NCBI GenBank assembly: GCA_023380695.1
Contig: JAMCRT010000030.1
Location: forward strand, 3,978-67,977
Source of the DNA: Patescibacteria group bacterium
GTDB lineage: Bacteria > Patescibacteriota > Dojkabacteria > JAKAPS01 > JAJZLI01
Direction: 5' to 3'
DNA length: 64,000 nucleotides
Shown: positions 43,753 through 60,417 of the stretch, in pieces
Numbering within the stretch: the first letter of the stretch is position 1
Layout: each line of letters opens with the position of its first letter
Notes under the pieces: generated by a model
The model's input: only the letters and a program-made list of their open reading frames with translations
The model's database searches: none
What the model was told of the DNA's origin: nothing
Position numbers and translations under genes: made by a program

Positions 43753-44846
43753 TTATATTCTCTCATCTTGGAAAATATCTTGAGCTATTTCCTTTATTTA
43801 TAATATCGTTTATTACTACACTAATTATTACACCTCTCATTGGTATAATATCTAAAAGATTTAAGATTTATGACAACCCTCCTACTCTGAGAAATGATCC
43901 TACCGCAAAAAGAAGAATCCATAATGTAAAAAAATTAAGACTAGGGGGAATAGCTATAATTATTCCTTTTGTTATTTTAACTCTTTTAAATCTTCCTCTT
44001 ACAAAAAACCTTATTATTTTTATAATATGTATATTAATACTTTTAACTGTAGGTATTATTGATGATATATTTGATATACCTGCAAAATACCAATTATTGT
44101 TTCAAATAATAGTAGGCCTTATTACTGTACTTTCTGGTATTGATATAAACTATATATCAAAACCTCTTGGGGGAATATTCTTTTTCAATCAATTTCCAGT
44201 AAATATATTTGGAAATACAGTATATCTCTTATCTGCATTTATTACTTTTATTTGGATACTCTTTATAATTAATGCCATAAAATGGATGGCAGGAACAGAT
44301 GGTCTTGCTGAGGGTAACGTATCTATTGCTGCAATTATCATTGCACTTCTTTCTATAAGATTCTTTACACATGATACAGCTGTAATGGGGTTCATATTTT
44401 CAGGATTAATGCTTGGCTTTCTCTTTTATAATTTTTATCCATCTAAAATATTCTCTGGTTCATCAGGAAAAAGTGTTTACGGATATATAATTGCAATTCT
44501 TGCTATATATTCAGGAGCAAAACTTGCATCAACTATAATTGTTTTATCTATCCCCATAATAGATGCAATATATGTTATCTATAAAAGAATAAGGGAAGAA
44601 AAGCCAAAAAGTATTTCTGCCCTTATCAAAATTAATGACAAAAGACATCTTCATTATAAATTATTAGGGCTTGGATATAATCAAAGGCAGGTAGCATTAA
44701 TTGAATATATTTTTACTATAATAATAGGGATAGTAGCTCTAATTGTGACAGGATTTCATAAAGCTATAATACTCGCAGTCATTCTTCTTATAATAATGCT
44801 ATTTATTTTTACAGTAAATAAAAAAAGTAAAGTTAAAAACATATAA
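43749..44846 (+). CDS. MraY/WecA-family glycosyltransferase 4 (polyprenyl-phosphate N-acetylhexosamine-1-phosphate transferase)
   Basis: About 10 TM helices. VGIIDDIFDIPAKYQLLFQI is the DDxxD motif of the family. Confidence 0.75.
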   Translation: MIIFSHLGKYLELFPLFIISFITTLIITPLIGIISKRFKIYDNPPTLRNDPTAKRRIHNVKKLRLGGIAIIIPFVILTLLNLPLTKNLIIFIICILILLTVGIIDDIFDIPAKYQLLFQIIVGLITVLSGIDINYISKPLGGIFFFNQFPVNIFGNTVYLLSAFITFIWILFIINAIKWMAGTDGLAEGNVSIAAIIIALLSIRFFTHDTAVMGFIFSGLMLGFLFYNFYPSKIFSGSSGKSVYGYIIAILAIYSGAKLASTIIVLSIPIIDAIYVIYKRIREEKPKSISALIKINDKRHLHYKLLGLGYNQRQVALIEYIFTIIIGIVALIVTGFHKAIILAVILLIIMLFIFTVNKKSKVKNI

Positions 44847-44885
44847 CTTTAATGAAAATTTAATATAGTATGATATAATTTAGTA

Positions 44886-45245
44886 ATGATAAAAAACAAA
44901 GAAGAGATAACAGAATATTTATCTTCAATTCCACCTTATTGTGAAAAATGTGGAACAATGTATAACAAAGATAAGGTTGAAGTTATTGATAAAAATCAAA
45001 ATATGACAATTATTTACATAATGTGTGAAAATTGTAAAACAAAAAATGTCTTCTATGTAGTAAAACCTATGAACTTTGTTAGTAGGGCAAATTTAATAGT
45101 AGACCTTGATATGGAAGAAATAAAAAAATTTGCAGGATCAAGAAAAATAGACTCTAATGATATATTAAATGTCTTTGATCTTTTATCCACTAAGAAAGCT
45201 AAAAACTCAAAGGATTTTTTAAAAATTATTAATAGTAATGTTTAA
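44886..45245 (+). CDS. Zinc-ribbon hypothetical protein
   Basis: CEKCG...CENCK pair. Confidence 0.35.
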   Translation: MIKNKEEITEYLSSIPPYCEKCGTMYNKDKVEVIDKNQNMTIIYIMCENCKTKNVFYVVKPMNFVSRANLIVDLDMEEIKKFAGSRKIDSNDILNVFDLLSTKKAKNSKDFLKIINSNV

Positions 45246-45504
45246 AAAAATATCTGTAAATAAAATATCCTTAATACAAAATGAAATAGAAATAAAAAAA
45301 ATATTAAACAGATATTTTTTAAAACACCTTAAAGAAGATTTTGATGAATTTATTATATTTAAAAATTTTAGTAATAACACCTTAAGCCTTATAATTAAAG
45401 AACCAACACTTGCTCAATATATAAATCTTGATAAAAAAAATATATTAAATATTCTTAATAAAAAATTTGAAATTTCTGATATAAAAATTAAAGTTGGAAA
45501 TTAA
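45238..45504 (+). CDS. DUF721 (DciA-like) small protein. Tentative.
   Basis: Its size and C-terminal pattern (...LSLIIKEPTLAQYINLDKKNILNILNKKF...IKIKVG) fit DUF721. It sits next to dnaN. Confidence 0.25.
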   Translation: MFKKISVNKISLIQNEIEIKKILNRYFLKHLKEDFDEFIIFKNFSNNTLSLIIKEPTLAQYINLDKKNILNILNKKFEISDIKIKVGN

Positions 45505-46638
45505 TTATCTCTCATATAATGGCATTATTAAATATGTATAATTACCAAGGTTTTTATCTATAATTTTAGATACTTTTCTAGATTCTGAACTGTTTAATTC
45601 AATTGAAATTTTTTCACCATCGCTGTGGTTTAAAAAATCCATTATATAATTTGCATTAAAATTAACACTTATATCTTTACCTTCAATTTTTGTTTTTATA
45701 GATGAATTTAGATCTCCAACTTCTTTTAATCCAGAATTAAATTCTACTTTATTTTCAATTGAATTAAACAGTTCAGAATCTATAGATATTTCTTTAAATT
45801 TAAAAGGTGTTGAAAGTTTTAAAATATTTTTTAAGTCCTCCCTTTTAATTTCAAATGATGTTGAATAGAATTCTGGAAATATTTTTTTGTAATCTGGATA
45901 TTTTCCTTGTATAATTCTTGATATAAATTTTATATTTTCTATTTCAAAAAGTATTTGATTTCCAGAAATCATATATATATACATAGATACATTATCTTCA
46001 AAATTTTTAGTTTTTATAATATCTGAAATATTATCAAGAGCTTCTTTTGAAATAACTAGATTGTCTATAGAAGATTTTATATCTTCGCTTTCTATTGATA
46101 TACTGGCTAATCTAAAACCATTAATTCCAATAAAGTTTATATTTTTTTCGTCAAATTCCATTAAAACACCTGTTAAAATAGGTCTTGCTTTATCTTTGGA
46201 TGTTGCAAAAGATACTTTATCTATAGCAAAAGATAAAGCATTTGGATTTATTTTTATAAAATAATCTGTATCCTTGTCTCTATCAGGAATATCTGGATAT
46301 TCATCTGTTGGAATTGTATTTAAACTAATTTCATTTTTTTTGTCTTTTATATAAAGAGTGTTGTCTTGTAATAATATATTTATAATACTAGATTTTAAAT
46401 TTGCTATTATTTCGTAGAAATTTTTTAAATTTATTGTGCATTCACCTTTTTCTATAACCTCTATACCTACAATAGTAATTGCACTCTGTTCTAAATTTGT
46501 ACTTTTAATTACTAGTTTTTTCCCATCCACTAAAAGTAGTGCATTATTTAAAATAGGAATAGATGTTCTAACAGGAACTGTTTTTATATTTAAACTTAAA
46601 GCCTCAAGTAAGTTTTCTCTTTTTATTCTAATATTCAT
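45505..46638 (-). CDS. dnaN: DNA polymerase III beta sliding clamp
   Basis: MNIRIKRENLLEALSLNIKTVPVRTSIPILNNALLLV. Three-domain length. Downstream of dnaA. Confidence 0.9.
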   Translation of the reverse strand: MNIRIKRENLLEALSLNIKTVPVRTSIPILNNALLLVDGKKLVIKSTNLEQSAITIVGIEVIEKGECTINLKNFYEIIANLKSSIINILLQDNTLYIKDKKNEISLNTIPTDEYPDIPDRDKDTDYFIKINPNALSFAIDKVSFATSKDKARPILTGVLMEFDEKNINFIGINGFRLASISIESEDIKSSIDNLVISKEALDNISDIIKTKNFEDNVSMYIYMISGNQILFEIENIKFISRIIQGKYPDYKKIFPEFYSTSFEIKREDLKNILKLSTPFKFKEISIDSELFNSIENKVEFNSGLKEVGDLNSSIKTKIEGKDISVNFNANYIMDFLNHSDGEKISIELNSSESRKVSKIIDKNLGNYTYLIMPLYER

Positions 46639-46917
46639 AATATATTATATATGTAAGTATTATTATGTATTGTTTATAACTCAAAAATTTCTATATATTT
46701 ATTATAGTTACACTTCTAATCTATGTGCAATACATGTTCATAATATAAATTTATCAAAAATACTACAAACAATTAATAATTTAAAATTAATACATTAATT
46801 TAACTTTAAATACAATGTGTATAAAATTAAATTTTTGTGTATTTAATTTTATAACAATAATTGTATTAATTAAAATTATACTACTTCAAAGATATTTATA
46901 AACAATTTATAAACACC
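46639..46917. promoter_or_regulatory. AT-rich dnaA-dnaN intergenic region. Candidate DNA-unwinding element and second oriC half.
   Basis: About 88% A+T. Degenerate box TGTGTATAA at 46816-46824. Tandem ATTTATAAACA x2 at 46893-46915. Confidence 0.4.
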
Positions 46918-48252
46918 CTATTGTAAAGAACTTCGTATTTCATAAATTTGATTTTTTAGAGCATAATCATCATTTATCATTTTTTCTATTTTATCTACTG
47001 CATACATTACTGTTGTATGATCTTTTCTTTTTAAAAGACTTGCTACATCTGTATAGGGAAGATTTAAATCTACTCTTAAAAGATACATAGCTACCTGTCT
47101 TGGCATAACCACTTTATTTGTTCTTCTTTCTCCCCTTATTTCTTTTATTGATATACCAAATTTTTCACATATTGTATTTATAACATCTTGGGGTTTTATT
47201 CTTTTTATAGTTTTTTTTATCTGTATTCCTAAAATATCTTGTATTTCACTAAATCCCAGTTTTTTTTGTAAAGAATTTTGTATTGCTTCTATTTTTGTTA
47301 AAATTCCTTCAAGTTCTCTTACATTGGATCCAAAATTCTCAGATATAAAATTTATTATATCTTTATCAAATGTTATGTTTTTTTCTTCACATTTTTTATT
47401 TAAAATTGCAGTTTTTAGTTCTATATCTGGAACTCCAATGTCAGCAACCATTCCACCTTCAAATCTAGATACTAATCTTTCTTCTAAATTTTCTATATCT
47501 CTTGGGTGTCTGTCTGAGGCTAATATTATTTGCTTATTTGCTTGATGAAGAGAATTAAATGTGTGGAAAAACTCTTCTTGAGTTCCTTTTTTACCAGATA
47601 TAAATTGTATATCATCAATTATTAAAACATCTTTATCTCTGTATTTTTTCCTAAATTTATCTGAAGAACCATTCTTAATAGACTCTATTAGTTCTCCTAG
47701 AAATGTCTCTGAAGATAAATAAACTACAGAATAACCCTTATTCTTATCTTCTATGGCATTTCCTATGGCTTGTAGTAAGTGGGTTTTTCCAAGACCAACA
47801 CCTCCAAATATAAAGAGAGGGTTGTATATCATTCCAGGTTTCTCAACTACTGCAATAGAAGCTGCATGTGCAAGTCTGTTTGAGGAACCGACAACAAAAT
47901 TAGAGAATAGGTATTTTTTATTTAGATTTGAGGTTTGTTTTTTATCTGTATTGTCTGTTTCTTTTGTATATTCAAATATTGGAGATATGTCATCATCTTC
48001 TAGTTTTTGTATAATTGAAAAATTGATATCAATGGGTTCTCCTGAGGCATCTTGAAGTGCATTTCTTACAGTATTTAAATAGTTGTTTTGAATATAGTCT
48101 ACTATAAATGAATTCTGACATTCTATATTTGCAACCCCATCTTTAATTTCTTTTAAATTTAATTTTGAAAACCAAACTTTAAAACTCTTTTCAGGAACCT
48201 TCAGTTGTATTTTGTCAGTTGCTATTTTCCAAACAGAGTTGATGTTGTCCAT
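46918..48252 (-). CDS. dnaA: Chromosomal replication initiator DnaA
   Basis: LFIFGGVGLGKTHLLQAIGN is the Walker A motif. The C-terminal HTH block ...DHTTVMYAVDKIE is present. Confidence 0.95.
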   Translation of the reverse strand: MDNINSVWKIATDKIQLKVPEKSFKVWFSKLNLKEIKDGVANIECQNSFIVDYIQNNYLNTVRNALQDASGEPIDINFSIIQKLEDDDISPIFEYTKETDNTDKKQTSNLNKKYLFSNFVVGSSNRLAHAASIAVVEKPGMIYNPLFIFGGVGLGKTHLLQAIGNAIEDKNKGYSVVYLSSETFLGELIESIKNGSSDKFRKKYRDKDVLIIDDIQFISGKKGTQEEFFHTFNSLHQANKQIILASDRHPRDIENLEERLVSRFEGGMVADIGVPDIELKTAILNKKCEEKNITFDKDIINFISENFGSNVRELEGILTKIEAIQNSLQKKLGFSEIQDILGIQIKKTIKRIKPQDVINTICEKFGISIKEIRGERRTNKVVMPRQVAMYLLRVDLNLPYTDVASLLKRKDHTTVMYAVDKIEKMINDDYALKNQIYEIRSSLQ

Positions 48253-48324
48253 AAATGAAGTAAATCAAAATTATTAATATTAAAAATTTTTTGGGACAAT
48301 TTAGTGATTTTTATAATAACAAAT

Positions 48325-48333
48325 TGTGGATAA
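48325..48333. promoter_or_regulatory. Perfect DnaA box (TGTGGATAA = reverse complement of TTATCCACA) in the dnaA upstream region
   Basis: Exact 9-mer in ...aacaaattgtggataactttt..., about 70 bp upstream of the dnaA start. Confidence 0.6.
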
Positions 48334-48456
48334 CTTTTCAATTATTTGATTAAATGTCGTATAATAACAATATATTTTGTATGGCATCTTTATTAAGTGA
48401 ATAAGCACAACCTAGAGTGCAATTATTCAATTAACTGGAGAGATGTCCCCGATTTA

Positions 48457-49101
48457 TTATAAAATGGCATTAACACTATCTGAAGAGTCTTCAAGCTTAG
48501 CTTCATCTATAACTTTATTTAAGTGAGTTTTTGTCATAGTTTTTAATTTTTTTGAAGGTATTTTCTCTACCCAGTTGAACAACCCGTTATAATCAAAATT
48601 TGATGGCAATGTTAACTCAACCAATGAAACATGGCGAGACCCAAGAACCGAGAGCAGATAAATTGTGTCGAATAGTGCTTTTTCCTTTGTTGCTAAACGT
48701 ACTCCATTTGTTTCAATAAATCCTCCATAGAGTTCTTTTGTAATATGATAAATGTGGAAAGTACCTAATGCAGTAGGTATTTTTTGAGCACGATCTAAAG
48801 ATATAACATGGATTTCTTTGGGAATTTGTTCAATCATATCATGCCTTGATAAGGCTGTCCAAAAAGATCCATAGGCACTATATGGAGCGGTAAGATATGG
48901 GGCAACAATAAGTGGATCCCTTATTGTGCTAATTGCCCACAATCCCCTTTTTATTTTTGTAACAACTCCAGAGTCTACTAGGGTTAACATAGTCTGGGAT
49001 GCAGCTGGTAGGGTTTTTTTTAAAACTAAAGCTACCTCAGTAGTTGTGACTATCGGTTTTTTAACTTGCGCTAGACGACCCAACGACATTATAGAATTCA
49101 T
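48457..49101 (-). CDS. AbiEi-like antitoxin/transcriptional regulator (COG5340-type winged-HTH N-terminus)
   Basis: KKPIVTTTEVALVLKKTLPAASQTMLTLVDSGVVTKIKRGLWAI is the AbiEi_4-type N-terminal domain. TAATG overlap with the upstream gene. Confidence 0.65.
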   Translation of the reverse strand: MNSIMSLGRLAQVKKPIVTTTEVALVLKKTLPAASQTMLTLVDSGVVTKIKRGLWAISTIRDPLIVAPYLTAPYSAYGSFWTALSRHDMIEQIPKEIHVISLDRAQKIPTALGTFHIYHITKELYGGFIETNGVRLATKEKALFDTIYLLSVLGSRHVSLVELTLPSNFDYNGLFNWVEKIPSKKLKTMTKTHLNKVIDEAKLEDSSDSVNAIL

Positions 49102-49919
49102 TATTTATCCTCCTTTTGGATTTTGATCTTTTTAATTTTATTAAATTTGTTTGAATTCTTATTTTTATGTATATTATTCATACGATTTATGACAAATTCA
49201 TGCATCCTTTCCCATGACTTTATAGAGTCATATGTTATTCTAAAATCATCTTTTAAAAAAGGGATTACCTGTTCTTTGAAATCTTCATAAGTTAGATTCT
49301 CTACTCTTGATAAGGCCTCTAATATATCTTTCTGTTTTAATATAGTGAGGTGACTTTCTGTTTTTCTGAATAATATCTCTAAATCAAAAATGTCTCTAGC
49401 CTTTGTTTCATTTCTTCTTGCTAGTGCCATAATTTTTTGGTCAATCATTGCATCTAAATTATATCTTTGCAGTAAGTATGGAGTAATGCCATATTGCCCA
49501 ACAATGCTTTCGGGAATATCTATTGTATCAAAACCATAGTCACTATGACGACCAGAAAATTCTATTTTAGTTCTAATTTCAACATCAGAGTTAGTTAAAA
49601 CTAATCCTAATTTCCAGCGATGAGTAGTTGTAGTCTGTTTTGGTTTACTAATATTTACAATGGAAATATTAGCACTATTAAGAGTACTAATAAGTACATT
49701 ACTAACTAAAACCTGACCAACAATTTTTTCTAGCTTTAATCCTTCATCTTTGATTAAATCTAGCTCAATGTCATTAGAATACCTAGGACTATTAAAATAA
49801 TACCTAAGATTAGCACCACCTTTAAGTACGTAATTTTTTGGATTATACTTATAAACCAAAACCGATAAAAATGTTAAATGGAACCGTTCTATAATTTGTG
49901 GTTTTGACGTTTCATTCAT
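49101..49919 (-). CDS. AbiEii/AbiGii-family nucleotidyltransferase toxin (DUF1814)
   Basis: YVLKGGANLRYYFNSPRYSNDIELDL is the PF08843 signature (KGGTaL...RfSeDlD). Confidence 0.7.
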   Translation of the reverse strand: MNETSKPQIIERFHLTFLSVLVYKYNPKNYVLKGGANLRYYFNSPRYSNDIELDLIKDEGLKLEKIVGQVLVSNVLISTLNSANISIVNISKPKQTTTTHRWKLGLVLTNSDVEIRTKIEFSGRHSDYGFDTIDIPESIVGQYGITPYLLQRYNLDAMIDQKIMALARRNETKARDIFDLEILFRKTESHLTILKQKDILEALSRVENLTYEDFKEQVIPFLKDDFRITYDSIKSWERMHEFVINRMNNIHKNKNSNKFNKIKKIKIQKEDK

Positions 49920-50001
49920 AATATATAACTGTACTATAAATTAAATTATAATGCAACTATATGTATCGTCAATACGGACTGAAATATGTTACAATTGATT
50001 A

Positions 50002-50559
50002 ATGAAAAACGAAGGAAGATCTTCTATAAAAATACTTTTAATTGCTGTTATAGTAATAGTTATTCTTGCGTTAATTGTGTTTTTAAATATTCAAACAGGA
50101 AGAAAGGCTTATAACGTAATAAATCCTGGTGGTAGGATTAATGATGCAAATAACCGGTCAAGGGTATCTAATATTAAGGCAATATTTGATGCTCTACAGA
50201 TGTATTATTCCAATAATGGTACATACCCTGCAGGTTTAAATAAACTTCCATCTCCCCTTATAACAAATGCCCCATATGGTTATTCTGTTACTGGATCTAC
50301 AATTGGCGTACCTAATTGTGTTTCAGGTTCAGGAACAATACCTAATGCTACAGTTACAGTTTCTTCGTCTTGCACAAAGCTTACAGCAGGCTCTGTGATA
50401 TATAAAGAACTCTCCAAATATATAAGTGTTATTCCAACGGGGAATTACTATTTAGTTGAAAATAGTACAGGAAACAAAGTTGTAGTATTTGCAACTGGAA
50501 TGAGGCAAGGAATAACATCCGATACTGAAGGTTATCCAGTAGCCTGGTATTATAACTAA
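50002..50559 (+). CDS. Pilin paralog with a corrupted prepilin motif (MKNEGRSSIKILL instead of G/FTLIE). Mosaic of the two downstream pilins.
   Basis: The N-terminal 100 nt are most like the 50643 gene. The C-terminal ~280 nt are ~88% identical to the 51242 gene. Confidence 0.55.
   Translation: MKNEGRSSIKILLIAVIVIVILALIVFLNIQTGRKAYNVINPGGRINDANNRSRVSNIKAIFDALQMYYSNNGTYPAGLNKLPSPLITNAPYGYSVTGSTIGVPNCVSGSGTIPNATVTVSSSCTKLTAGSVIYKELSKYISVIPTGNYYLVENSTGNKVVVFATGMRQGITSDTEGYPVAWYYN
50278..50559. repeat. Repeat of about 282 bp shared with 51497-51778 (pilin C-terminal coding segment)
   Basis: Near-identical runs such as ggttattctgttac(t/c)ggatctacaattgg(c/a)gtacctaattgtgtttcaggttcaggaacaatacctaatgctacagttacagtttcttc. 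Confidence 0.8.
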
Positions 50560-50642
50560 ATATATCTAACACAAAATGTTTCTGTAACAATGTTTTTATA
50601 GAACACTTTTACTTCTTTTATTTATTTGCTATAAATTAATTA

Positions 50643-51167
50643 ATGAAAAATGAAGGTTTCACTCTTATAGAAATACTTTTAGTTATAGTTATAATAGCAA
50701 TACTTGCATTAGTTGTGTTTTTAAATATTCAACCACAAGGAAGGATATATGATGCTACAGATAGTACAAATATAAAAGAGATTAAATCTGTTTTATCTGC
50801 AGTTGAGATGTACACGGTTGATAATAAAGGTAATCCTCCTTCATCTATTCCGTTTATTCCCTCTCCTTTCATTACAAACAATAAAAATTCTTCAGGTTTA
50901 GGTTCTGGGTTTAATATTACAAATAATTCTACAGGAATTCCTAACTGTACTCAGGCAGGGGCTAACACAAACACATGCTTACCAATAACTAATGCTTTAT
51001 TTGACTCTCAGATAAAGAAATATTTATCTGCTATGCCTTCTGGGCAATTTTATATTGCAAGAAGTTCTGGTGGTTCACAAATTGTTGTGTTTTCATCAAG
51101 TATGAAAAAAGGAATAACAATTGATAGTAAAGGGTTTGGAGTAGGATTTGATATTTACAGATTTTAA
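50643..51167 (+). CDS. Type IV pilin (class III signal peptide MKNEGFTLIEILLVIVIIAILA)
   Basis: Canonical G/FTLIE motif. Confidence 0.8.
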   Translation: MKNEGFTLIEILLVIVIIAILALVVFLNIQPQGRIYDATDSTNIKEIKSVLSAVEMYTVDNKGNPPSSIPFIPSPFITNNKNSSGLGSGFNITNNSTGIPNCTQAGANTNTCLPITNALFDSQIKKYLSAMPSGQFYIARSSGGSQIVVFSSSMKKGITIDSKGFGVGFDIYRF

Positions 51168-51241
51168 ATATAAAAGAGTTGTTTGACAAAACTGTAAGGT
51201 TATTCTAAATTTAATATAATAAAAAGGAGGTGAGCTAGAAA

Positions 51242-51778
51242 ATGAAAAAAATAAATAACAAGGGTTTCACCTTAATAGAAATTCTTATAGTAATTGTTAT
51301 AATAGCTATACTTGCATTAGTTGTATTTGTTGCAATAAATCCTGTAGGTAGGATTCATGATGCAAACAACTCATCAAGAGTATCTAACATTAAATCAATA
51401 TTTAATGCTGTGCAGATGTATACTTCTGATAATCAAGGATCATATCCAGGTGGGTTGTCTCAACTTTCATCTCCACTTATAACAAGTGCTGCATATGGTT
51501 ATTCTGTTACCGGATCTACAATTGGAGTACCTAATTGTGTTTCAGGTTCAGGAACAATACCTAATGCTACAGTTACAGTTTCTTCATCTTGTGTACAACT
51601 TACATCAGGATCTACAATATATACAGAACTATCTAAATACGTAAGCTCTCTTCCAACAGGGAATTACTATTTAGCTGAAAATAGTGCAGGAAACAAAGTT
51701 GTAGTATTTGCAACTGGAATGCAACAAGGAGTAACATCCGATACTGCAGGTTATCCAGTAGCTTGGGATTATAACTAA
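51242..51778 (+). CDS. Type IV pilin, likely the major pilin
   Basis: MKKINNKGFTLIEILIVIVIIAILA. Strong Shine-Dalgarno (aaaaggaggtga) 8 nt upstream. Followed by a GC-stem terminator. Confidence 0.85.
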   Translation: MKKINNKGFTLIEILIVIVIIAILALVVFVAINPVGRIHDANNSSRVSNIKSIFNAVQMYTSDNQGSYPGGLSQLSSPLITSAAYGYSVTGSTIGVPNCVSGSGTIPNATVTVSSSCVQLTSGSTIYTELSKYVSSLPTGNYYLAENSAGNKVVVFATGMQQGVTSDTAGYPVAWDYN

Positions 51779-51791
51779 GCATATTTAAAGT

Positions 51792-51820
51792 AGAGGGGGT
51801 TGACCCCTCTCTTTATTTGT
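51792..51820 (+). terminator. Rho-independent terminator after the major pilin gene
   Basis: AGAGGGG-gttga-CCCCTCT perfect 7-bp GC-rich stem followed by CTTTATTTGT. Confidence 0.7.
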
Positions 51821-51834
51821 ATATAATATAAAAT

Positions 51835-52155
51835 ATGTCTAAATTAAAAATAGATTCACAAAATTTCGAAAACGAAGTAATAAATTCAGAAATTCCAGTT
51901 ATGGTTGATTTTTGGGCAGATTGGTGTATGCCATGTCATATGTTAGATCCTGTAATAGAGGAAATAGCAAATGAATTTGAAGGTAAAATAAAAGTAGGGG
52001 GACTAAATGTTGATGAAAATGGAGATTTATCTTCAAAATATTCAATCATGAGTATTCCTGCCGTTTTATTTTTCAAAGACGGAAAAGAAGTTTCTCGCCT
52101 TATTGGTGTTAGAGGAAAGGAAGATTTTACAGCAGAAATAGATAAAATTACTTAA
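51835..52155 (+). CDS. trx: Thioredoxin (non-canonical WCMPC active site)
   Basis: VDFWADWCMPCHMLDPVIEEIANEF. Confidence 0.8.
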   Translation: MSKLKIDSQNFENEVINSEIPVMVDFWADWCMPCHMLDPVIEEIANEFEGKIKVGGLNVDENGDLSSKYSIMSIPAVLFFKDGKEVSRLIGVRGKEDFTAEIDKIT

Positions 52156-52158
52156 ATT

Positions 52159-52812
52159 GTGAATTTAAATATATTTACTTTATATCCAGACTATTTTATA
52201 TCTCCTTTTAACTTTGGAATTCTTAAAAAAGCTTTATCAGAAAAGTTGGTAAATATAAACGTAATAAACTTGAGAGAGTTTGCCTATGATAAAAGGGGGT
52301 CTGTTGATGATACTCCTTATGGAGGGGGAGCAGGAATGGTTTTAAGGGTAGATGTTTTACATAGAGCTCTTGAAAGTGTTAAATCGAAAAATGGGTTTTC
52401 TATTATGCTGTCTCCCGCAGGGAAAAGATATAATCAAAAAATTGCAAGGAAACTTTCAGTGAAAAAAGAAATAAATATTTTTTCAGGGAGGTTTGAGGGT
52501 TTTGATGAAAGATTTCTAAATTTTGTTGATATGGAATTATCTTTAGGAGACTTTGTTCTATCAGGAGGAGAGAGTGCTTCCCTTGTTGTTATAGATTCAG
52601 TTGTTCGTCTTATTCCTGGAGTTTTGGGAAATGAGAAATCTTTAGATACAGAATCTTTTTCTTTGGGAGGTTTATTAGAATATCCGCAATATACAAAACC
52701 AAAAGATTTTATGGGATTTGGTGTTCCAGAGGTACTTTTAAGTGGAGATCATAAGAAAATAGATATATGGAGAAAAGAGAAGAGCCTACAAAAAACCAAA
52801 AAGAGAGTTTAA
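52159..52812 (+). CDS. trmD: tRNA (guanine37-N1)-methyltransferase
   Basis: MNLNIFTLYPDYF...DDTPYGGGAGMVLRVDVL. Confidence 0.9.
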   Translation: MNLNIFTLYPDYFISPFNFGILKKALSEKLVNINVINLREFAYDKRGSVDDTPYGGGAGMVLRVDVLHRALESVKSKNGFSIMLSPAGKRYNQKIARKLSVKKEINIFSGRFEGFDERFLNFVDMELSLGDFVLSGGESASLVVIDSVVRLIPGVLGNEKSLDTESFSLGGLLEYPQYTKPKDFMGFGVPEVLLSGDHKKIDIWRKEKSLQKTKKRV

Positions 52813-53028
52813 AGATATATGGCTATTGATAGTTTGTATTGATTGATATATATTTAAAATATGATAAAAAGATTTATATATTTTGTTTATTTAAAACTTC
52901 AGTTAAAGTTTCTAAAATTTAAAGTTTTGAAAAAAAGACTTGGGGCATATAAAGAGGATGCAGTATCTTTAATCGAGAGTAATTCCCACTCAGATTTAAG
53001 AGCTAAAAGCTCTATAAGTATAAAAAAT

Positions 53029-54438
53029 ATGTTCTATATTCTTATTGTATTTTTTGCTCTAACTACAGGGGTTGTTTTTGCAAGCTCAGGGAGTTCAAAT
53101 TTAAATCAATGTGCTCCAGTTAACGGGTCAGGATTGTCTGTTTGGAATTCTTGTGGTTTTACCCCGTCAATTTTTCAATCAATGTCAATTTCAATACTTG
53201 GAAACTATACTCAATATCAAAATTTACTAGGTTGTGGAAGTAATCAAAAGTGTGTTAATTCATTTCATTACACAGGAGGATATGGGGCACTAGGAGATAC
53301 AACAGCACTTATGGGGTATATGTATACAGAGCATCCTGCATCAGGTGTTGGGTATTTTGCATACCTAGGACAAAAAGCAGGCTTTATAAACAATACCTAT
53401 GCTGCGGGTACTTCTCAGGTTACTTCAGAGCCTGTATATGGATTTTCTTTTCTTTCCCCAATAGAACATCTTTGGGCATTTTCTAGAGATATAGCATACT
53501 TACTTCTAGTTATAGTTATTATTGCAACAGGTCTTCTTATTATTATTGGGGGGAAAGTAGGGCAGTCTCAAATTCCAATAACGTTTATGAGTGCACTTCC
53601 AAATATTGTTGCAGCAGTAATATTGATAGAATTTAGTTATGCACTAGGGGGTTTTATGATAGATATAATGAATATTTTACTAGTACTTATTTTTAATATA
53701 TTTAGCTCGGGACTTCAGCATCTTGGGAACACAGGTTTTCCTTCTGCATTTAGTAGTAATTCATATATTTTTCATGTATTTGGAAGCTTACCTGGCGCCA
53801 TTAGTGGTGGATTACAGTCAGCAAGATTAAATAAACTTGTTACGAGTGGAGGCTTGTTAGGGGGACTGTTAAACTCATTAGGTAATCTTGCTTCGAACAA
53901 GACATTTTCTGGGATTATAGCTTTTTTAATAGCTATAATCCTATTATTTACAGCCTTAAAAATATTTATTTTACTTATGAAATCTTACTTGCAACTGTTA
54001 TTCTTGCCGATAGCTGCACCTTTTATGTTTCTTTTTGGGGCATTTCCAGGACAGGGAAAAATGATAGGTAAGTTTTTTATGGGTATGGCTAAAGCAGTTT
54101 TAACATTTGTTATTGTATATGTTGTGTTTCTTTTAATTTACTATTTACAACATGGAAACAATGGAAGTCCTTTGTCATTTGGAAATGGAGCAAATGTACC
54201 TTTGTTAGGATTTTCATATTTTACAAGTAATGGAGGAACAGAGGTGGTTTCTGTATTTATCTCTATTGCTTTGTTTGTCTGGATTCCAAAGATTGTAGCT
54301 GATATGACAAAGGCATTTGGATATGATCTTGGTGCATATGGTACAGAACTTAAAAAGGGATTTTCAGACCCATACTCAAGGCTTACTAATTGGTATAAAA
54401 GAGGGAGAGGTTCTCTGTCTTCCAGAGGTAATGCCTGA
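53029..54438 (+). CDS. VirB6/TrbL-like polytopic membrane protein (signal peptide, Cys-containing extracytoplasmic domain, 5 or more TM helices). Tentative.
   Basis: Start chosen at MFYILIVFFALTTGVVFASS (the track ORF begins at 52861). About 140 aa extracytoplasmic domain with 5 Cys. Then multiple Gly-rich TM helices. The architecture and context resemble VirB6/ConG. Confidence 0.35.
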   Translation: MFYILIVFFALTTGVVFASSGSSNLNQCAPVNGSGLSVWNSCGFTPSIFQSMSISILGNYTQYQNLLGCGSNQKCVNSFHYTGGYGALGDTTALMGYMYTEHPASGVGYFAYLGQKAGFINNTYAAGTSQVTSEPVYGFSFLSPIEHLWAFSRDIAYLLLVIVIIATGLLIIIGGKVGQSQIPITFMSALPNIVAAVILIEFSYALGGFMIDIMNILLVLIFNIFSSGLQHLGNTGFPSAFSSNSYIFHVFGSLPGAISGGLQSARLNKLVTSGGLLGGLLNSLGNLASNKTFSGIIAFLIAIILLFTALKIFILLMKSYLQLLFLPIAAPFMFLFGAFPGQGKMIGKFFMGMAKAVLTFVIVYVVFLLIYYLQHGNNGSPLSFGNGANVPLLGFSYFTSNGGTEVVSVFISIALFVWIPKIVADMTKAFGYDLGAYGTELKKGFSDPYSRLTNWYKRGRGSLSSRGNA

Positions 54439-54452
54439 TTGTATATTTTATT

Positions 54453-55109
54453 ATGAATCTTAGAGCATATTATTATCAAAAATATGGAAATGAATTTGAT
54501 GTATTTGCCCATTTTATAAATACAAATGGACTAGAAAGTGACTTTTTGGAGCTGTTTGAAGTATCAAGAGATTATTTGAAAGATAGCCTAGATTTTGTTT
54601 TGTATGATTATTTTTTTTCAGCAATAGATTTTTTTTATTCAAATAGTTCTGATATAAAATATGATTTTCTTTTCTTTAAAAAAATAATAGATGAGAAGTT
54701 TATTGAGTTTTGTATGTCAGATGAAGGGAAAGAGATAATTGATGAGACACATCTATATTTTGGAGGGAAGAGTATAGATATATTCGATGTTATTTATAAT
54801 AGTAGAGAACATTTTGAAAATTCCGATTATCCTTCTGTTGTTACAAATCTAGAATATTTCAAATTTCTAGATAAATATTCAGATATAAAATATATAAAGG
54901 AGGTAAAAATTCTATCAATGCTTAGAACATTTATTGACAATGGGGGTTTTGGTGGAGAATTTTTCTCTCCATTTAGCAAAGATATGCAAAAATATACAGA
55001 CATTATTATAAATGGAGATTTTAGAGAAATGGATCAAAGAGTTTTCAGAAGTAATATTGAAGAATTTAGAGGAATTTTAGAAATAGAAGATATAGGGGTA
55101 TATGAATAA
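54453..55109 (+). CDS. Hypothetical acidic cytoplasmic protein
   Basis: No TM helices. Rich in D/E/F/Y. Confidence 0.35.
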   Translation: MNLRAYYYQKYGNEFDVFAHFINTNGLESDFLELFEVSRDYLKDSLDFVLYDYFFSAIDFFYSNSSDIKYDFLFFKKIIDEKFIEFCMSDEGKEIIDETHLYFGGKSIDIFDVIYNSREHFENSDYPSVVTNLEYFKFLDKYSDIKYIKEVKILSMLRTFIDNGGFGGEFFSPFSKDMQKYTDIIINGDFREMDQRVFRSNIEEFRGILEIEDIGVYE

Positions 55110-57835
55110 TGGATATAAATACTGCGGTTAGCACATATTGTGACCAATACTATACAAAAGAAGCTCTTTTTAGACTTTTGCGTACTAATAAAATAGATCC
55201 TGGTAATATAACAATTTCTGATGACGAGTTAAATATACTAGTCTCTACAGATCAATATGCAAGATTTGTTACACTGCAAATTGCAGAAAATCTTAAAGCA
55301 AGATTTACTGCAAATAAAAGTACTGTATATAGACAGAGATATCTTAACAATGAGGCAGATTTGCTTTCTAAGGCTATAGCCCCATTTATTGCATCAAGCT
55401 ATATTCCAGATGAAAGAAGGGAAGGTAGAGTAACTGGCATTAACGGCGTACATACAAATCTTAGGGCAAGAGGAAAGATGCTGGAGACTGCAATTGACTA
55501 TTGCCTTACAGTGTATCATGAACATGGGTATATGCCTCAATTAGATCAAACTTTGAAGCCTGTAGGAGCTATTCTTCCATCTGGATTTTCTAGAACCGGG
55601 AGTATTGATATAAGAGGGGGGAACGTTGACTCTGTTTCTTTACAAGATTTGCATTCTGTAATAAAGGAAGTCGCATGGAATGCTGGAATAAGGGCTGGAG
55701 TAAAAAGTCTTACAAAAAAACAAAAAATAGCAAGATTACAGTCTAAGTATGGAATATCTTCTGATGAGGCAGAAAGAATTTATGAAAAATTTTTGGAAGA
55801 GTTTAGTTATATAAATATACTTCAAAAAGATAATGGGAAAAGTTATGAGAGACCTTTACTTGAAAGACACGGAATCTACCCAAGACTATATCTTTGGCAA
55901 TATATATTAAATGATACTAGGGCAAAAAGAAAGGGGTCTCTGTTAGATATTCCACATACATGGAGAATGGCAGCAAAAATAGGGTTTACTTCTGCTATAT
56001 CCTCTGGTCGTTGGGGAAATGTGAGAGACGCAAGTGCATATAGAGACACAATTTTTGGAAAGATTTTCGAACACAAAAAAATTGAATATATGGGAGCTGT
56101 GATGAGTTTTGTTGCCAAAGAAGAGGAAAGAACTCTTCCACTAGTTGTAAGTAGAGAGCGTAAAAGAGCTCTTAAAGGAAGAAGGTTGTGGGGTGCTGAT
56201 AAAACTAACCCATATTTATATTCCGACTATATTGACTCTCAAGTTTTCATTAAAGCAAATAGTAAAAAGATTTCTGATAGATTAGAAGAAACGGTGTCTG
56301 AGAGAAATTCTGTATTAAAATGGTTTCAGAAAACAAAAAATGCAAAAGCAATAAAGGCATATAAAAAGCCTCCTAGTAAGAAAAGTAAAAAAAGAAGAGG
56401 ATTAAATTTTTTAGATTTAATTTTGGCTGTTCCTGCATTAGTTATAGATGCAATAACTTTTCTTGCTACAGATGCTGCTTTAGCTGGAGTAAGTGTTTTA
56501 GGCAAATTAGGAATTGTTAGTGAAGATAGTTTTTTAAGAACTATTTTTTCAGGAAATATGGAAGGAGGATTGTGGGATAAAATTCTTCTTTCATGGGATG
56601 GAATGAAATTTACATTTTCTGGGCTTAAATTTGTATTAAAAGATTCAATTGTGGGGGCAATACCTGGGGCTATAGTGGCAGTTCTTTCAGGGAGTCCATT
56701 GCTTGGTGGAATTGTATCTTTTACAATGTTTGCTCCAAAATTCTTTGGAGACTTTACACAAATGTTTGCAATGTCAGGGCCTGCAGGTGATATAGTTACA
56801 AAAATTGTAGAGGATTTTGGAGAAAAAAGTCTTTCAGGTGGAGAGATTTTGGTAAAATCACTTGGTTCTGGGGTATATATTGGGGCCCCTTTATTTATAC
56901 TGTCTGCACTTTTTGGCCTTCCTATAGGAACTGCAGCTCTTATTACTGTGGGGGTTGTTGGGGTAAGGGCAGCAGATCTTGCTATCTTTGAGAAAGTTTT
57001 AAGTCCAAGATTTATCGACGCAGGTGCCATAGATGCATCTACCGCTCAGGAGGTTTTATTTAAATCAAAATATCTTCTTAATTTTGGTACTCCTAGTCTT
57101 GGACTAGTAATTGCAGGTGCCGTGACAGGGAATATACCTTTATTAATTTTAGGTGGTGCAGGGTTTACAACATCTGCAGTTTCAGATTTCTTTAGAAATT
57201 CTTTGTTTGACAGTATGTCTATTAAAAGTGGGACAGATTTAGTTTCTTCTATACATGGAGTTACAACATTTACGTTGGGTCCAGCAATAATAGGTGGAGC
57301 CATAGGCGGTCCAGTGGGAGCAGTAATAGGAGGAGCTATAGGAGGGGTTACTGGTATTAGCTTTACTCTATTAAAGCATACGGTTTCAGATATAGCTATA
57401 GATCCAAGAATGCGGGTATTTGCAGAAGATGAGAGCAAAATGATAGAGGCTCAAAGAAAACTTATTTCATTTAATAGAAATTCTTTTACTACTGATGCCG
57501 AGAGAGGTATTTTAAGAAACTTTGATCCACGAACAGGAGTAGACGGGAATATTGACAGTTTATTGAGAAGTAAAGGATATGATTTTAAAATACAGGATTT
57601 GAGAGATTGGGGATTAAATGATGCTGATATTGAAAGGTTGTTTAGAGGTAGGGCTACTTTCTCAGGGACAGTTATAGGGGTGAAAAATTTTAACTTTGAA
57701 CTGAAATCATTAAAGGAGAATGTAGAAGCAGTAAGGGGAGAATTTTTAAGGGATTTTGTTAATGAAGATAAACTTGCAACGGATTTGGGAAAGGGAACTT
57801 CAGCTACAGCTCCCATATATTCAATTTTTTTGTAA
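55109..57835 (+). CDS. Large (908 aa) protein: soluble N-terminal domain of about 420 aa followed by a glycine-zipper-rich multi-TM region
   Basis: Residues 420-720 are full of GxxxG/AxxxG arrays (e.g. GGAIGGPVGAVIGGAIGGVTG). I recognise no catalytic motif. Confidence 0.45.
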   Translation: MDINTAVSTYCDQYYTKEALFRLLRTNKIDPGNITISDDELNILVSTDQYARFVTLQIAENLKARFTANKSTVYRQRYLNNEADLLSKAIAPFIASSYIPDERREGRVTGINGVHTNLRARGKMLETAIDYCLTVYHEHGYMPQLDQTLKPVGAILPSGFSRTGSIDIRGGNVDSVSLQDLHSVIKEVAWNAGIRAGVKSLTKKQKIARLQSKYGISSDEAERIYEKFLEEFSYINILQKDNGKSYERPLLERHGIYPRLYLWQYILNDTRAKRKGSLLDIPHTWRMAAKIGFTSAISSGRWGNVRDASAYRDTIFGKIFEHKKIEYMGAVMSFVAKEEERTLPLVVSRERKRALKGRRLWGADKTNPYLYSDYIDSQVFIKANSKKISDRLEETVSERNSVLKWFQKTKNAKAIKAYKKPPSKKSKKRRGLNFLDLILAVPALVIDAITFLATDAALAGVSVLGKLGIVSEDSFLRTIFSGNMEGGLWDKILLSWDGMKFTFSGLKFVLKDSIVGAIPGAIVAVLSGSPLLGGIVSFTMFAPKFFGDFTQMFAMSGPAGDIVTKIVEDFGEKSLSGGEILVKSLGSGVYIGAPLFILSALFGLPIGTAALITVGVVGVRAADLAIFEKVLSPRFIDAGAIDASTAQEVLFKSKYLLNFGTPSLGLVIAGAVTGNIPLLILGGAGFTTSAVSDFFRNSLFDSMSIKSGTDLVSSIHGVTTFTLGPAIIGGAIGGPVGAVIGGAIGGVTGISFTLLKHTVSDIAIDPRMRVFAEDESKMIEAQRKLISFNRNSFTTDAERGILRNFDPRTGVDGNIDSLLRSKGYDFKIQDLRDWGLNDADIERLFRGRATFSGTVIGVKNFNFELKSLKENVEAVRGEFLRDFVNEDKLATDLGKGTSATAPIYSIFL

Positions 57836-57865
57836 AGAGAAATTCCAGGATACAGAGACTTAAAG

Positions 57866-59548
57866 TTGGGTGATGCAGGAAATGTAAACGAACTAAGGAA
57901 TATAGATTTATCAAAATATTTTGAAGGGTCTAAGTTTGAATTGAATTTAAAATTTTTAGAGCATCTAACTTTAAGTGATATTGCCAGTGAAGAGGGATTA
58001 GTCGCAAAATTAGCGGATTTGAGGAATGTGGATCCAGGGAGATTAGTTGATATACAAAACTTTTTTACAGAGAGAGGGCTAGAGGGCGGAATAGATTTCA
58101 CTAACAATGCTAGGATTGCAAGAGCTCTTGGCAATGTAAATATAGCAGAGCTTTCAAAGGAAGGGATTTTGAATGATTTAGTAATAAAGTCTGGAGATTT
58201 AACGGGTAGCATAGAGGAGCTAACAGGGTTTGATATAAGGGCTGCAGGTCTTAGTGCAAAAGTTTTGCAAGGAGCTCCTTGGTCAATATCAAAAATTCCT
58301 GCATTAATGAGATCTGATATAAAGCTTCCTATACCTGGAATGACACACGCAACATTTGCAGATATATCTCCAGCTATGAACTCAGGATTTATTGCTGGAA
58401 TTGGGTTAAGTCTTGTTGGTGTATCTCCCGTGATTGCGGTGGCTACAGGTGTGGGAGTTATGGGTGCAAGACTGGTTCTTTCTAGTATTTATAGGAGTCC
58501 AGAGACTAGTTTGCCGATAGGTGCTATTGGAGAAGGAGGCAAAGCATTACTAGAGGCTTTTTCTCACAGTATTAACGTAGGAATGGTTACTTTTGTAGTT
58601 GCAGATCTTTTACTTCATAGTATTCCTGTTGCTGGAATGGTAGCCGCTGGTGTAACTGCAGGATATACAGCATTAAGATTTATATTGAAAGGTAAAGGTT
58701 GGTTTAAAGATGGGGGCGGAATTATTAAGGGTATAGGGGCTGCAAAGGCGGACTTTCTTGGAAAATTAGGTGTTCCAGATTGGGCAATTAAAATTTTTTC
58801 ATTAAAAGGTGCATTTGATGTTGGTATGGTAATACAGCTTGATGACTCTTTGATGAATCCTGCCAAATTTATATCTACACTTGGAACATTCACACTTCCT
58901 GCCATTATAAGTTCATGGGGTACGTTAATTTTTGGGTTTGCAGGAGCATACGGTTTAGCGGCGCTTATACTTGGAGCAGGATTCGGGCTTGCAACGGCCG
59001 GTTTGGGGTTAGGGATACTGGTGGTAGGATATGGAATAGATTGGTTAGTAAAAGGTATTACAGGATTTGATATTGGTCATTGGATTTTAGGTTGGATAAA
59101 AACAGGAATATCTGATGTGTTTTCATGGTTTGGAAATCATGCTATGGCTCCAATCTCTTGGGGTTTTGATATCCTAATTACTATGATGCTTTTAATCTTT
59201 AGGACAGATTTTGATATAGATGAGTTTGTGCGTACAATTGTAACTACCGTTGTTATTGTTGCTATATTTATGAATATTTTTGGAGGGGGTGCTGCTTCAG
59301 GAGGTACAAATAGCAATACTTCAAATATTGCAACAAACAATCATACAAAGTCTGGAACTGTTGGGTTTCTAGTGTCCCCATATTCTGGAAAAATTGTAAA
59401 TATAGAACAAAATAGCAAGATTTTGGCAGATACTGTATATATAAAGAATTCAGAAGGAGAAGTAAGTGTTCATAATATATATAACCCATATTTGTATATT
59501 GGTGAACATATAACTAAAGGTTCATTTATTGGGAATACTGTAAAATGA
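57866..59548 (+). CDS. Glycine-zipper membrane protein (560 aa) with a C-terminal half-M23/lipoyl-like beta domain
   Basis: FGFAGAYGLAALILGAGFGLATAGLGLGILVVGYG. C-terminus YSGKIVNIEQNSKILADTVYIKNSEGEVSVHNIYNPYLYIGEHITKGSFIGNTVK. Confidence 0.45.
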   Translation: MGDAGNVNELRNIDLSKYFEGSKFELNLKFLEHLTLSDIASEEGLVAKLADLRNVDPGRLVDIQNFFTERGLEGGIDFTNNARIARALGNVNIAELSKEGILNDLVIKSGDLTGSIEELTGFDIRAAGLSAKVLQGAPWSISKIPALMRSDIKLPIPGMTHATFADISPAMNSGFIAGIGLSLVGVSPVIAVATGVGVMGARLVLSSIYRSPETSLPIGAIGEGGKALLEAFSHSINVGMVTFVVADLLLHSIPVAGMVAAGVTAGYTALRFILKGKGWFKDGGGIIKGIGAAKADFLGKLGVPDWAIKIFSLKGAFDVGMVIQLDDSLMNPAKFISTLGTFTLPAIISSWGTLIFGFAGAYGLAALILGAGFGLATAGLGLGILVVGYGIDWLVKGITGFDIGHWILGWIKTGISDVFSWFGNHAMAPISWGFDILITMMLLIFRTDFDIDEFVRTIVTTVVIVAIFMNIFGGGAASGGTNSNTSNIATNNHTKSGTVGFLVSPYSGKIVNIEQNSKILADTVYIKNSEGEVSVHNIYNPYLYIGEHITKGSFIGNTVK

Positions 59549-60417
59549 AAGTAATAAAAATTGTTATACCAATAATTGTATTTATAGCATTAATATATTT
59601 ATATGTTTTGAGTATGAATTCTCATAGTAATCTACATATAAAGATAAAAAGTAAAAAGTCTCATATCAATAGTTCCAGAAATATTCCTAAAGTCTCTTTT
59701 CAGTCAAATAAATTCAGATTTTTAAAAAATAATTTCAAGTTTGGGTTTAATCCTCAAAATAACAGTTATTATGTAAATAAAGTAAATTTAAATCCATATT
59801 CTGTTGCTATAAATTTAGGTTTTTCAAAAGCTCCAACAACTATAAATGGTAGTAATAGTTTGGTGTGGACAAATAGTAAGGGACATTTAGTTTATTCAAA
59901 TAATACATACTTTGAAATTTTAAATAAAGGATCTTCTTCTAATATTCAAAATTATAAATCTCAACTGATAAAAAAAGTGTTTAATATGGGAAATATCTCT
60001 TCTGTGGATTCTGAGAATATTGTAGGTAATACATATGTATATAAAATATATCCTACTATAGATAGTCAATATATATATACCAACAATTTTCACAGATTTT
60101 ATGAAAGTATAATTCTTTATTCAAATAAATCATTAAAAAGTTTTTCTATATTACCCATAGATTTGAAAACACAAAAAGGATATTTGAATAAAATTACTTT
60201 AAGCTATATTAATATGAATAACTATCCTTTATATATAGGGAATTTAAATAGTGGAACTATTTCAGGAATAAATATAGGTAAGGTTAGAAATATCTTTTAT
60301 TATGATCTTTCATCAAATAATATAATTCCTGCATATATGATTTATGGAAATGTTGTTATAATAAATAATGGAGATATGAGATATGAGAGTTTTATACCAA
60401 AAATTAAGTACAATTAG
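59545..60417 (+). CDS. Secreted/bitopic hypothetical protein (possible VirB8-like scaffold). Speculative.
   Basis: N-terminal TM/signal sequence MKVIKIVIPIIVFIALIYLYVL. Tyr/Asn-rich beta-type sequence. Confidence 0.35.
   Translation: MKVIKIVIPIIVFIALIYLYVLSMNSHSNLHIKIKSKKSHINSSRNIPKVSFQSNKFRFLKNNFKFGFNPQNNSYYVNKVNLNPYSVAINLGFSKAPTTINGSNSLVWTNSKGHLVYSNNTYFEILNKGSSSNIQNYKSQLIKKVFNMGNISSVDSENIVGNTYVYKIYPTIDSQYIYTNNFHRFYESIILYSNKSLKSFSILPIDLKTQKGYLNKITLSYINMNNYPLYIGNLNSGTISGINIGKVRNIFYYDLSSNNIIPAYMIYGNVVIINNGDMRYESFIPKIKYN

Follow-up and report, generated by a model that had tools for sequence, protein, structure and literature searches.

We examined a 64,000-nucleotide stretch of DNA from a Patescibacteria group bacterium (contig JAMCRT010000030.1 of assembly GCA_023380695.1), hereafter called the window, in which three open reading frames (ORFs) of the type IV pilin type lie in tandem on the + strand: g1 (50002-50559), g2 (50643-51167) and g3 (51242-51778). 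They are flanked by an AbiE toxin-antitoxin pair on one side and by trx and trmD on the other, with dnaA and dnaN close by. An original prediction, made from the sequence letters, had placed three tandem pilin genes at these positions and had described g1 as a copy with a corrupted signal, serving as a silent or donor cassette in the manner of Neisseria pilS. The gene layout holds, and the interpretation of g1 is revised here. W denotes the genome of the window, S its sister genome, and E and F two further genomes; anchored relatives of g1 are encoded in S (P0002, or S_anc), E (P0011) and F (P0008).

Three tandem pilin genes and the mosaic structure of g1

The products of g2 (174 residues) and g3 (178 residues) are canonical prepilins, beginning MKNEG/FTLIE and MKKINNKG/FTLIE, respectively, and both match the N_methyl family PF07963. 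The 185-residue product of g1 does not match this family and, as originally read, has GRSSIK at the position of GFTLIE in the other two: within MKNEG-RSSIK the Gly of the class III signal is kept, but Arg stands at +1 and Lys at +5. Its architecture is that of an anchored pilin-like paralog, with a short basic N-terminal tail, a transmembrane segment of the uncleaved type, a linker, and a pilin head homologous to that of g3. Residues 1-28 (50002-50085), the g2-like part of the gene, comprise the tail MKNEGRSSIK, with a net charge of +2, and the 18-residue hydrophobic segment ILLIAVIVIVILALIVFL (residues 11-28), which is uncharged throughout and has a mean Kyte-Doolittle hydropathy of 3.47. A junction insert follows (residues 29-39, 50086-50118), reading NIQTGRKAYNV, absent from g2 and g3 and corresponding to NIQQGIKVYNA in the sister ortholog; with these ~30 extra nucleotides, missed by the original prediction, a g2-type motif (NIQ.GR.Y) and a g3-type motif (INP.GRI.DANN) stand in series. 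The remainder (50119-50556) encodes the alpha1-C helix and the head and is g3-like, with 85% DNA identity to g3. The g1 and g3 proteins are 76% identical overall and 80% identical in their head domains. An AF2 model of g1, built on a 12-sequence alignment and of low confidence (predicted local distance difference test score 57), predicts a helix at residues 4-39, a break at 40-51, a second helix at 52-72 and then beta-strands, an order that agrees with this architecture but does not by itself support it. Among proteins of solved structure, the family profile matches type IV pilins and pseudopilins (geopilin, Thermus PilA, GspG, PilE1), only over the N-terminal helix.

Three-way informative sites join g1 to g2 by 11 to 4 before a breakpoint between 50083 and 50133, at the junction insert, and to g3 by 152 to 20 after it (maximum chi-square 38, matched in 0 of 10,000 permutations, p<1e-4). 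The MKNEG start, the stretch just upstream of the ATG and an identical run of 20 nt (50075-50094 = 50713-50732) are also common to g1 and g2, which confirms the g2-like 5' coding region that had been described. The accompanying claim that the 3' ~280 nt of g1 are ~88% identical to g3 was accurate as to identity (88.7% between 50278-50559 and 51497-51778) and too narrow as to extent, the whole g3-like part running from about 50119 to 50559. Synonymous divergence (dS) between g1 and g3 is patchy along this part, at 0.63 for 50119-50277, 0.15 for 50278-50376, 0.78 for 50377-50439 and 0.10 for 50440-50556; together with the breakpoint, this makes g1 a segmental mosaic and not a uniformly diverged copy.

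The two patches of low dS mark g1/g3 conversion tracts on the + strand. The recent tract at 50273-50376 (dS 0.15) contains a 59-nt identical run (50308-50366 = 51527-51585; P=0.0014 by permutation within codon positions, with no significant run in any other gene pair), and the tract at 50440-50556 (dS 0.10) contains one of 35 nt (50468-50502 = 51687-51721). When the S genes are added, quartet sites within 50263-50410 support the concerted grouping (g1 with g3, S_anc with S_g3) by 10 to 0 over orthology, and sites at the 5' end of g1 favour orthology by 7 to 3. Over codons 40-185, dS is 0.35 between g1 and g3 versus 0.80 (g3) and 0.82 (g1 vs P0002) between species, and DNA identity is higher within the genome (g1-g3, 83%) than between genomes (g1-S_anc, 72%). 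Each genome also has derived residues of its own in both genes of the pair, W reading CVSGSG and S reading ATVS(I/V)SS. At the 5' end, g1 and g2 have W-specific states in common, as S_anc and S_g2 have S-specific ones. Paralogs are closer than orthologs, in a tract-like distribution of the kind produced by concerted evolution, and gene conversion among the paralogs, as the original prediction had it, is the best explanation of the g1 mosaic.

Third codon positions favour neither direction of transfer (9 vs 10); a first polarisation, at 27:5 for g3-lineage states, was dropped as biased, having used two g3 comparators against a faster-evolving anchored lineage. Given the tight constraint on g3, the simpler reading would be overwriting of g1 by g3, or purging of g1-to-g3 events. 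An independent assembly of the locus (L001) equals the window letter for letter over 45783-56559, and another (L002) differs by one synonymous single-nucleotide polymorphism (50484), so that the mosaic is not an assembly artefact and chimerism as its source is ruled out. A look for recombination variants between 50278-50559 and 51497-51778 had been suggested; neither L001 nor L002 has a mosaic g3.

Anchored paralogs in related genomes

A protein search recovered P0002, a 185-residue protein of S, a genome whose housekeeping genes are 75-81% identical to those of W in DNA. P0002 begins MSTVNKKRNTFIIIF, has the junction FFNIQQGIKVYNAINPNGRINDANNR, and lacks Gly-1, Phe+1 and Glu+5. Its DNA is identical in six assemblies and it stands alone between murA and ftsI, neither of which is found within the 64-kb window. 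An exhaustive profile search over 1.84 billion representatives returned only 43 matches, two of them with the anchored design: P0008 (208 residues), encoded directly after dnaN and ~3.5 kb from the g3 of F, and P0011 (230 residues), encoded ~18 kb from the g3 of E on the same 165-kb contig. A pattern scan of reference genomes with g1 and P0002 gave only an unrelated Smithella match. Anchored copies occur once per genome and at four different loci, beside a conserved block dnaA-g2-g3-trx-trmD, which is kept in all five genomes examined with a g2 ortholog upstream of g3 in each.

No N_methyl match is obtained for any of the four anchored proteins, and one is obtained for every g3-type protein. 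A Gly in register is missing from P0002, P0008 and P0011. All four anchored proteins carry an uncharged run of 18-23 residues, preceded by a basic tail in g1, P0002 and P0008 and by a long, net acidic one in P0011. The order of parts is anchor, variable linker, and pilin alpha1-C helix with head; the linker measures 10 residues in W and S and is longer in E and F, the full range being 10 to about 30. W, S and F have in common the linker motif Y-x-x-INP-[NG]-GRI-[NI]-DANN, the g3 proteins reading INP-[VIA]-GRI-[HA]-DANN. Because the same type of N-terminus and the junction insert are present in P0002, and the design appears again in P0008 and P0011, g1 is not a one-off corrupted copy, and the notion of a corrupted signal has to be given up.

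The g2 orthologs of E (L024 4408-4938) and F (L027 3785-4315, - strand) begin MKIKKLNISDILIL and MEGKKFGISEILLF, with the acidic residue at +3 and not +5, and show neither a canonical class III motif nor an N_methyl match. In this clade, degeneration of the pilin signal seems to recur.

In a tree of head domains the anchored heads cluster with the g3 of their own genome, with bootstrap values of 100% (E) and 95% (F), and genome-specific insertions and deletions are held in common as well. Between an anchored copy and the g3 of its genome, dS rises from 0.35 in W, with 700 bp between the genes, through 0.39 in E (18 kb) and 0.63 in S, whose two genes are on separate contigs, to 1.15 in F. Gene conversion is strongest in W, where g1 lies ~700 bp from g3.

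The g1 gene evolves under purifying selection. Its ratio of nonsynonymous to synonymous divergence (dN/dS) against P0002 is 0.30 at a dS of 0.87, and 0.11 over codons 40-87, outside the young conversion tracts; the corresponding values for the sister orthologs are 0.15 for g2 (dS 1.08) and 0.06 for g3 (0.06-0.07; dS 0.76). The anchored ORF is intact in all four genomes, and the hydrophobicity of the anchor is kept despite divergence of its sequence. In simulations at 29% G+C, the probability that a neutral copy of g1 remains stop-free falls from 0.065 at K=0.1 substitutions per site to 0.007 at K=0.2 and 0.001 at K=0.3. Intact ORFs at a dS of 0.87, the rarity of neutral survival and a dN/dS of 0.30 together fit poorly with g1 being a pseudogene or nothing more than a silent cassette. 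The g3 proteins are 94-100% identical among six strain-level variants, with conservative changes only; being nearly invariant, g3 gives no sign of antigenic variation.

The expression signals differ among the three genes. Upstream of g3 (51183-51233, + strand), a promoter-like TTGACA, 17 nt and TAAATT (51183-51211) precede the Shine-Dalgarno (SD) sequence AAGGAGGTGA (51224-51233), the strongest among 59 ORFs surveyed in the window, 39 of which have none; the SD region is also conserved in S. Downstream of g3 lies an intrinsic-terminator-like G+C stem-loop (51792-51812, + strand), and no such structure follows g1 or g2. The strong SD and GC-stem terminator reported earlier are thus both present, and the conclusion once drawn from them, that g3 is the main expressed (major) pilin, is plausible in view of these signals and a dN/dS of 0.06-0.07. 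A promoter-like site also precedes g1 (49966-49995, + strand: TCGTCA, 18 nt, TACAAT with a TG extension). Neither g1 nor g2 has an SD, and their extended -10-like elements, TGTTACAAT for g1 and TGCTATAAAT for g2, end ~6 nt before the ATG (49987-50001 and 50628-50642), so that both mRNAs may be leaderless.

A probable membrane-tethered pilin head and its alternatives

What the sequences show is an anchored architecture that is conserved and under purifying selection, together with tracts of conversion; we consider it probable that g1 is a working gene for a pilin-head protein tethered in the cytoplasmic membrane, a member of a conserved lineage of anchored paralogs that undergoes conversion with g2 and g3. 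A short basic tail, an anchor of 18-23 residues and a flexible linker take the place of the class III signal with its assembly motif (Gly-1, Phe+1, Glu+5), and g1 would be inserted N-in/C-out as a signal anchor, outside the pilus core. The length of the hydrophobic run, the basic tail of three of the four members and the absence of an A-x-A-like site by eye fit a signal anchor, and from these features we infer an N-in/C-out topology without processing by prepilin peptidase. Since it has neither Phe+1 nor Glu+5, g1 presumably cannot pack into the filament core and would show a major-pilin-like head on a flexible tether; a linker whose length ranges from 10 to about 30 residues is more in keeping with a tether than with a helix that has to pack precisely. 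Repeated DNA exchange would then generate the mosaic, involving g2 at the 5' end of g1 and g3 in the head-coding part. The function that we prefer is that of a non-polymerising pilin mimic, which might dock under the last g3 subunit at the filament base as an anchor or stopper, or might expose on the cell body the surface by which the pilus binds; in both roles a head matched to g3 would be favoured by selection.

Several points weigh against a tethered head of this kind. Its specific function is a conjecture. The family is small, 5.8 billion proteins having yielded four anchored clusters, and its heads evolve at a dN/dS of 0.27-0.56, 4-8 times looser than g3, so that they are kept matched only approximately. 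The fold of g1 rests on homology to g3, its AF2 model being of low confidence. The promoter-like call for g1 is weak, as such sites are not more numerous than shuffling would lead one to expect. The Gly5 of g1 in W, probably copied from g2, makes cleavage by prepilin peptidase formally possible for this one member. Finally, as far as the head tree goes, the anchored copies could equally well have arisen several times independently.

Under this last scenario each genome would have duplicated its own g3 and exchanged the N-terminus for an anchor, the copies being convergent. The clustering of the heads with their own g3, the lack of monophyly of the anchored copies, the strong differences in tail, anchor and linker among W/S, E and F, and the four separate loci all speak for it. 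Against it stand the insert common to W and S and the orthology of their 5' ends, the linker motif of W, S and F that the g3 proteins do not have, and the conversion directly visible in W, and we regard recurrent birth as unlikely, if worth keeping in mind; were it true, the tethered-head design would have been selected repeatedly, which changes the history and not the function. It is also conceivable, with a much lower probability, that g1 is a recent chimeric duplicate that has lost its signal and is bound to become a pseudogene, its frame open by chance and through occasional repair from g3. A dN/dS several times that of g3, the missing Pfam match and SD, and the position within a lineage-specific insertion beside a toxin-antitoxin module would suit such decay. 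The same odd N-terminus and junction insert nevertheless persist in S, in an intact ORF at a dS of 0.87, and intact copies of the same design exist in two more genomes; the anchor has stayed hydrophobic as its sequence diverged, neutral ORF survival is below 1% at K>=0.2, and codons 40-87 show a dN/dS of 0.11 in the comparison with P0002.

The donor cassette of the original prediction, in which g1 would mainly be a DNA reservoir giving head segments to the expressed g3 and so varying the pilus surface, appears to us the least probable of these explanations. As in Neisseria pilE/pilS, segments are exchanged between pilin-related sequences, one of which has no assembly-competent N-terminus: real conversion tracts join g1 and g3 across ~700 bp, the assembly motif is missing from g1, and the third-position count of 9 vs 10 is compatible with some g1-to-g3 transfer. 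The pilS copies, however, have no promoter, no ribosome-binding site and no 5' constant coding region, and variation in Neisseria draws on many donor copies and needs a guanine quadruplex (G4) motif and a small RNA (PMC6796969). By contrast, g1 is a single, complete ORF with a start codon, a promoter-like site and its own anchor-encoding 5' region, its design is intact in four genomes, and its dN/dS of 0.30 reflects selection on the protein. The presumed acceptor g3 is nearly invariant (94-100% among six variants, dN/dS 0.06) and not hypervariable, the anchored copies of S, E and F sit at distant loci, the independent assemblies hold no mosaic g3 variants, and a G4 motif (G3+N1-7 x4) occurs on neither strand of the window. 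None of the features of a pilS-type cassette looked for in g1 (an incomplete gene, the absence of protein-level selection, a hypervariable acceptor, G4) was found.

The nearest analogy in design to a tethered head as a partner of a type IV filament is offered by the archaeal proteins FlaF and FlaG (ArlF/ArlG), which are monotopic, with an N-terminal helix lying within the membrane and a globular domain outside, FlaF having been proposed to anchor the filament in the envelope (PMC4425475). The likeness concerns architecture only, and we claim no homology: FlaF and FlaG differ from g1 in fold, FlaF binding the S-layer protein through an immunoglobulin-like beta-sandwich, and FlaF neither closely copies a filament subunit nor is known to evolve in concert with one. 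Within Patescibacteria, PilX1 and PilX2 of Saccharibacteria resemble pilins, lack a predicted PilD signal and are encoded together with canonical major pilins; they are large, carry an extra C-terminal jelly-roll or beta-propeller domain, and have been proposed as tip adhesins or primers (PMC11623550). With them g1 shares a non-canonical signal, and it differs in having the size of a major pilin, 76% identity to g3 and no extra domain. As a minor pilin with a vWA domain at its tip, Caulobacter CpaL was dropped as an analog. Those minor pilins and pseudopilins that lack Glu+5, such as the GspK type, have the pilin fold, deviate from the G-F-T-L-I-E motif and occupy particular places in the filament; they retain Gly-1 and undergo cleavage by prepilin peptidase. 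The anchored family differs from them in having no conserved Gly-1, none being in register in P0002, P0008 and P0011. The g1 gene is best filed as a new variant among type IV pilin paralogs, limited to a small clade and of conjectural function.

Ultrasmall episymbiotic bacteria encode few surface machines, type IV pili among them, and how these pili are anchored, terminated and used in host contact is open (PMC11623550). We put forward, tentatively and at somewhat less than even chances, that a small clade of Patescibacteria keeps a previously undescribed type IV pilus component, a tethered major-pilin head that, in one genome after another, conversion keeps matched to the major pilin, even over distances of kilobases. 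The tethered head could then be a base anchor or stopper of the pilus, or a cell-body adhesin with the binding specificity of the pilus, and in its logic it would be a bacterial counterpart of archaeal FlaF/FlaG; a pilin head on an ordinary membrane anchor, co-evolving with the major pilin, would represent an accessory role beyond the division into major and minor pilins. In the literature on Patescibacteria, of which our coverage was limited, we found described neither a near-copy of a major pilin on a membrane anchor nor conversion between pilin paralogs. For annotation, the locus advises caution, a pilin paralog without G-FTLIE not being automatically a pseudogene or a silent cassette, and it illustrates cleanly, in nature, gene conversion that depends on the distance between pilin paralogs in a reduced genome of 29% G+C.

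The lineage-specific insertion and the surroundings of the locus

Synteny and boundary alignment place g1 within a W-specific insertion of ~2.26 kb (~48343-50602) that is missing from the dnaA-g2 spacer of relatives and carries, besides g1, an AbiEi-like gene (48457-49101, - strand) and an AbiEii gene with a Pfam match (49101-49919, - strand). The syntenic locus of S reads dnaN-dnaA-g2-g3-trx-trmD, with neither AbiE nor g1, and a more distant relative has the same two-gene g2-g3 locus. The insertion is bounded on the left by a conserved DnaA box (48325-48333) and on the right by the g2 promoter region. This box is a perfect one (TGTGGATAA) and lies within a block, ATAACAAATTGTGGATAAC, that is kept directly upstream of dnaA in three genomes; its position in a conserved dnaA-upstream block makes the region probably oriC, and the pilin genes would then lie at the replication origin. 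The AbiE pair (48457-49919) adjoins g1 beside this origin region, and in E and F an AbiEii gene is found a few kb from the anchored copy or the pilin locus (L021 497-1751; L027 589-1898). This proximity may be accidental, since modules of this kind are said to abound in such genomes, or it may point to a site prone to recombination.

Downstream of trmD (window 52861-62830; L009, L015, L024, L027), all five genomes carry a block of genes for large proteins without Pfam matches, beside dnaA. Its conserved members are a multi-transmembrane protein of ~520 residues, one of ~220 residues and one of ~1460-1640 residues, and in the window an 815-residue ORF with a weak M23 peptidase match follows. 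Origin-proximal, dnaA-linked clusters of type IV secretion system (T4SS) genes have been reported for Patescibacteria (PMC12102498), and the block downstream of trmD may be related to them; no VirB4 or VirB6 match was obtained for it, and Pfam was uninformative on the genes after trmD. A search of the whole 64 kb against Rfam at gathering thresholds (ARAGORN was not run) returned no family, and hence no tRNA, rRNA or riboswitch.

The L001 assembly, which stems from the same population and is otherwise identical, diverges sharply (1-1781) from the window (44002-45782) upstream of 45783, a region that takes in the 3' end of dnaN and further genes past it; the boundary at 45783 indicates recombination or replacement at the strain level. 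Within the block downstream of trmD, the ORFs at 55109-57835 (908 residues) and 57866-59548 (560 residues) correspond to a single protein of ~1460-1640 residues in all relatives, which points to a break in W at ~57835-57866 by frameshift, stop codon or sequencing error.

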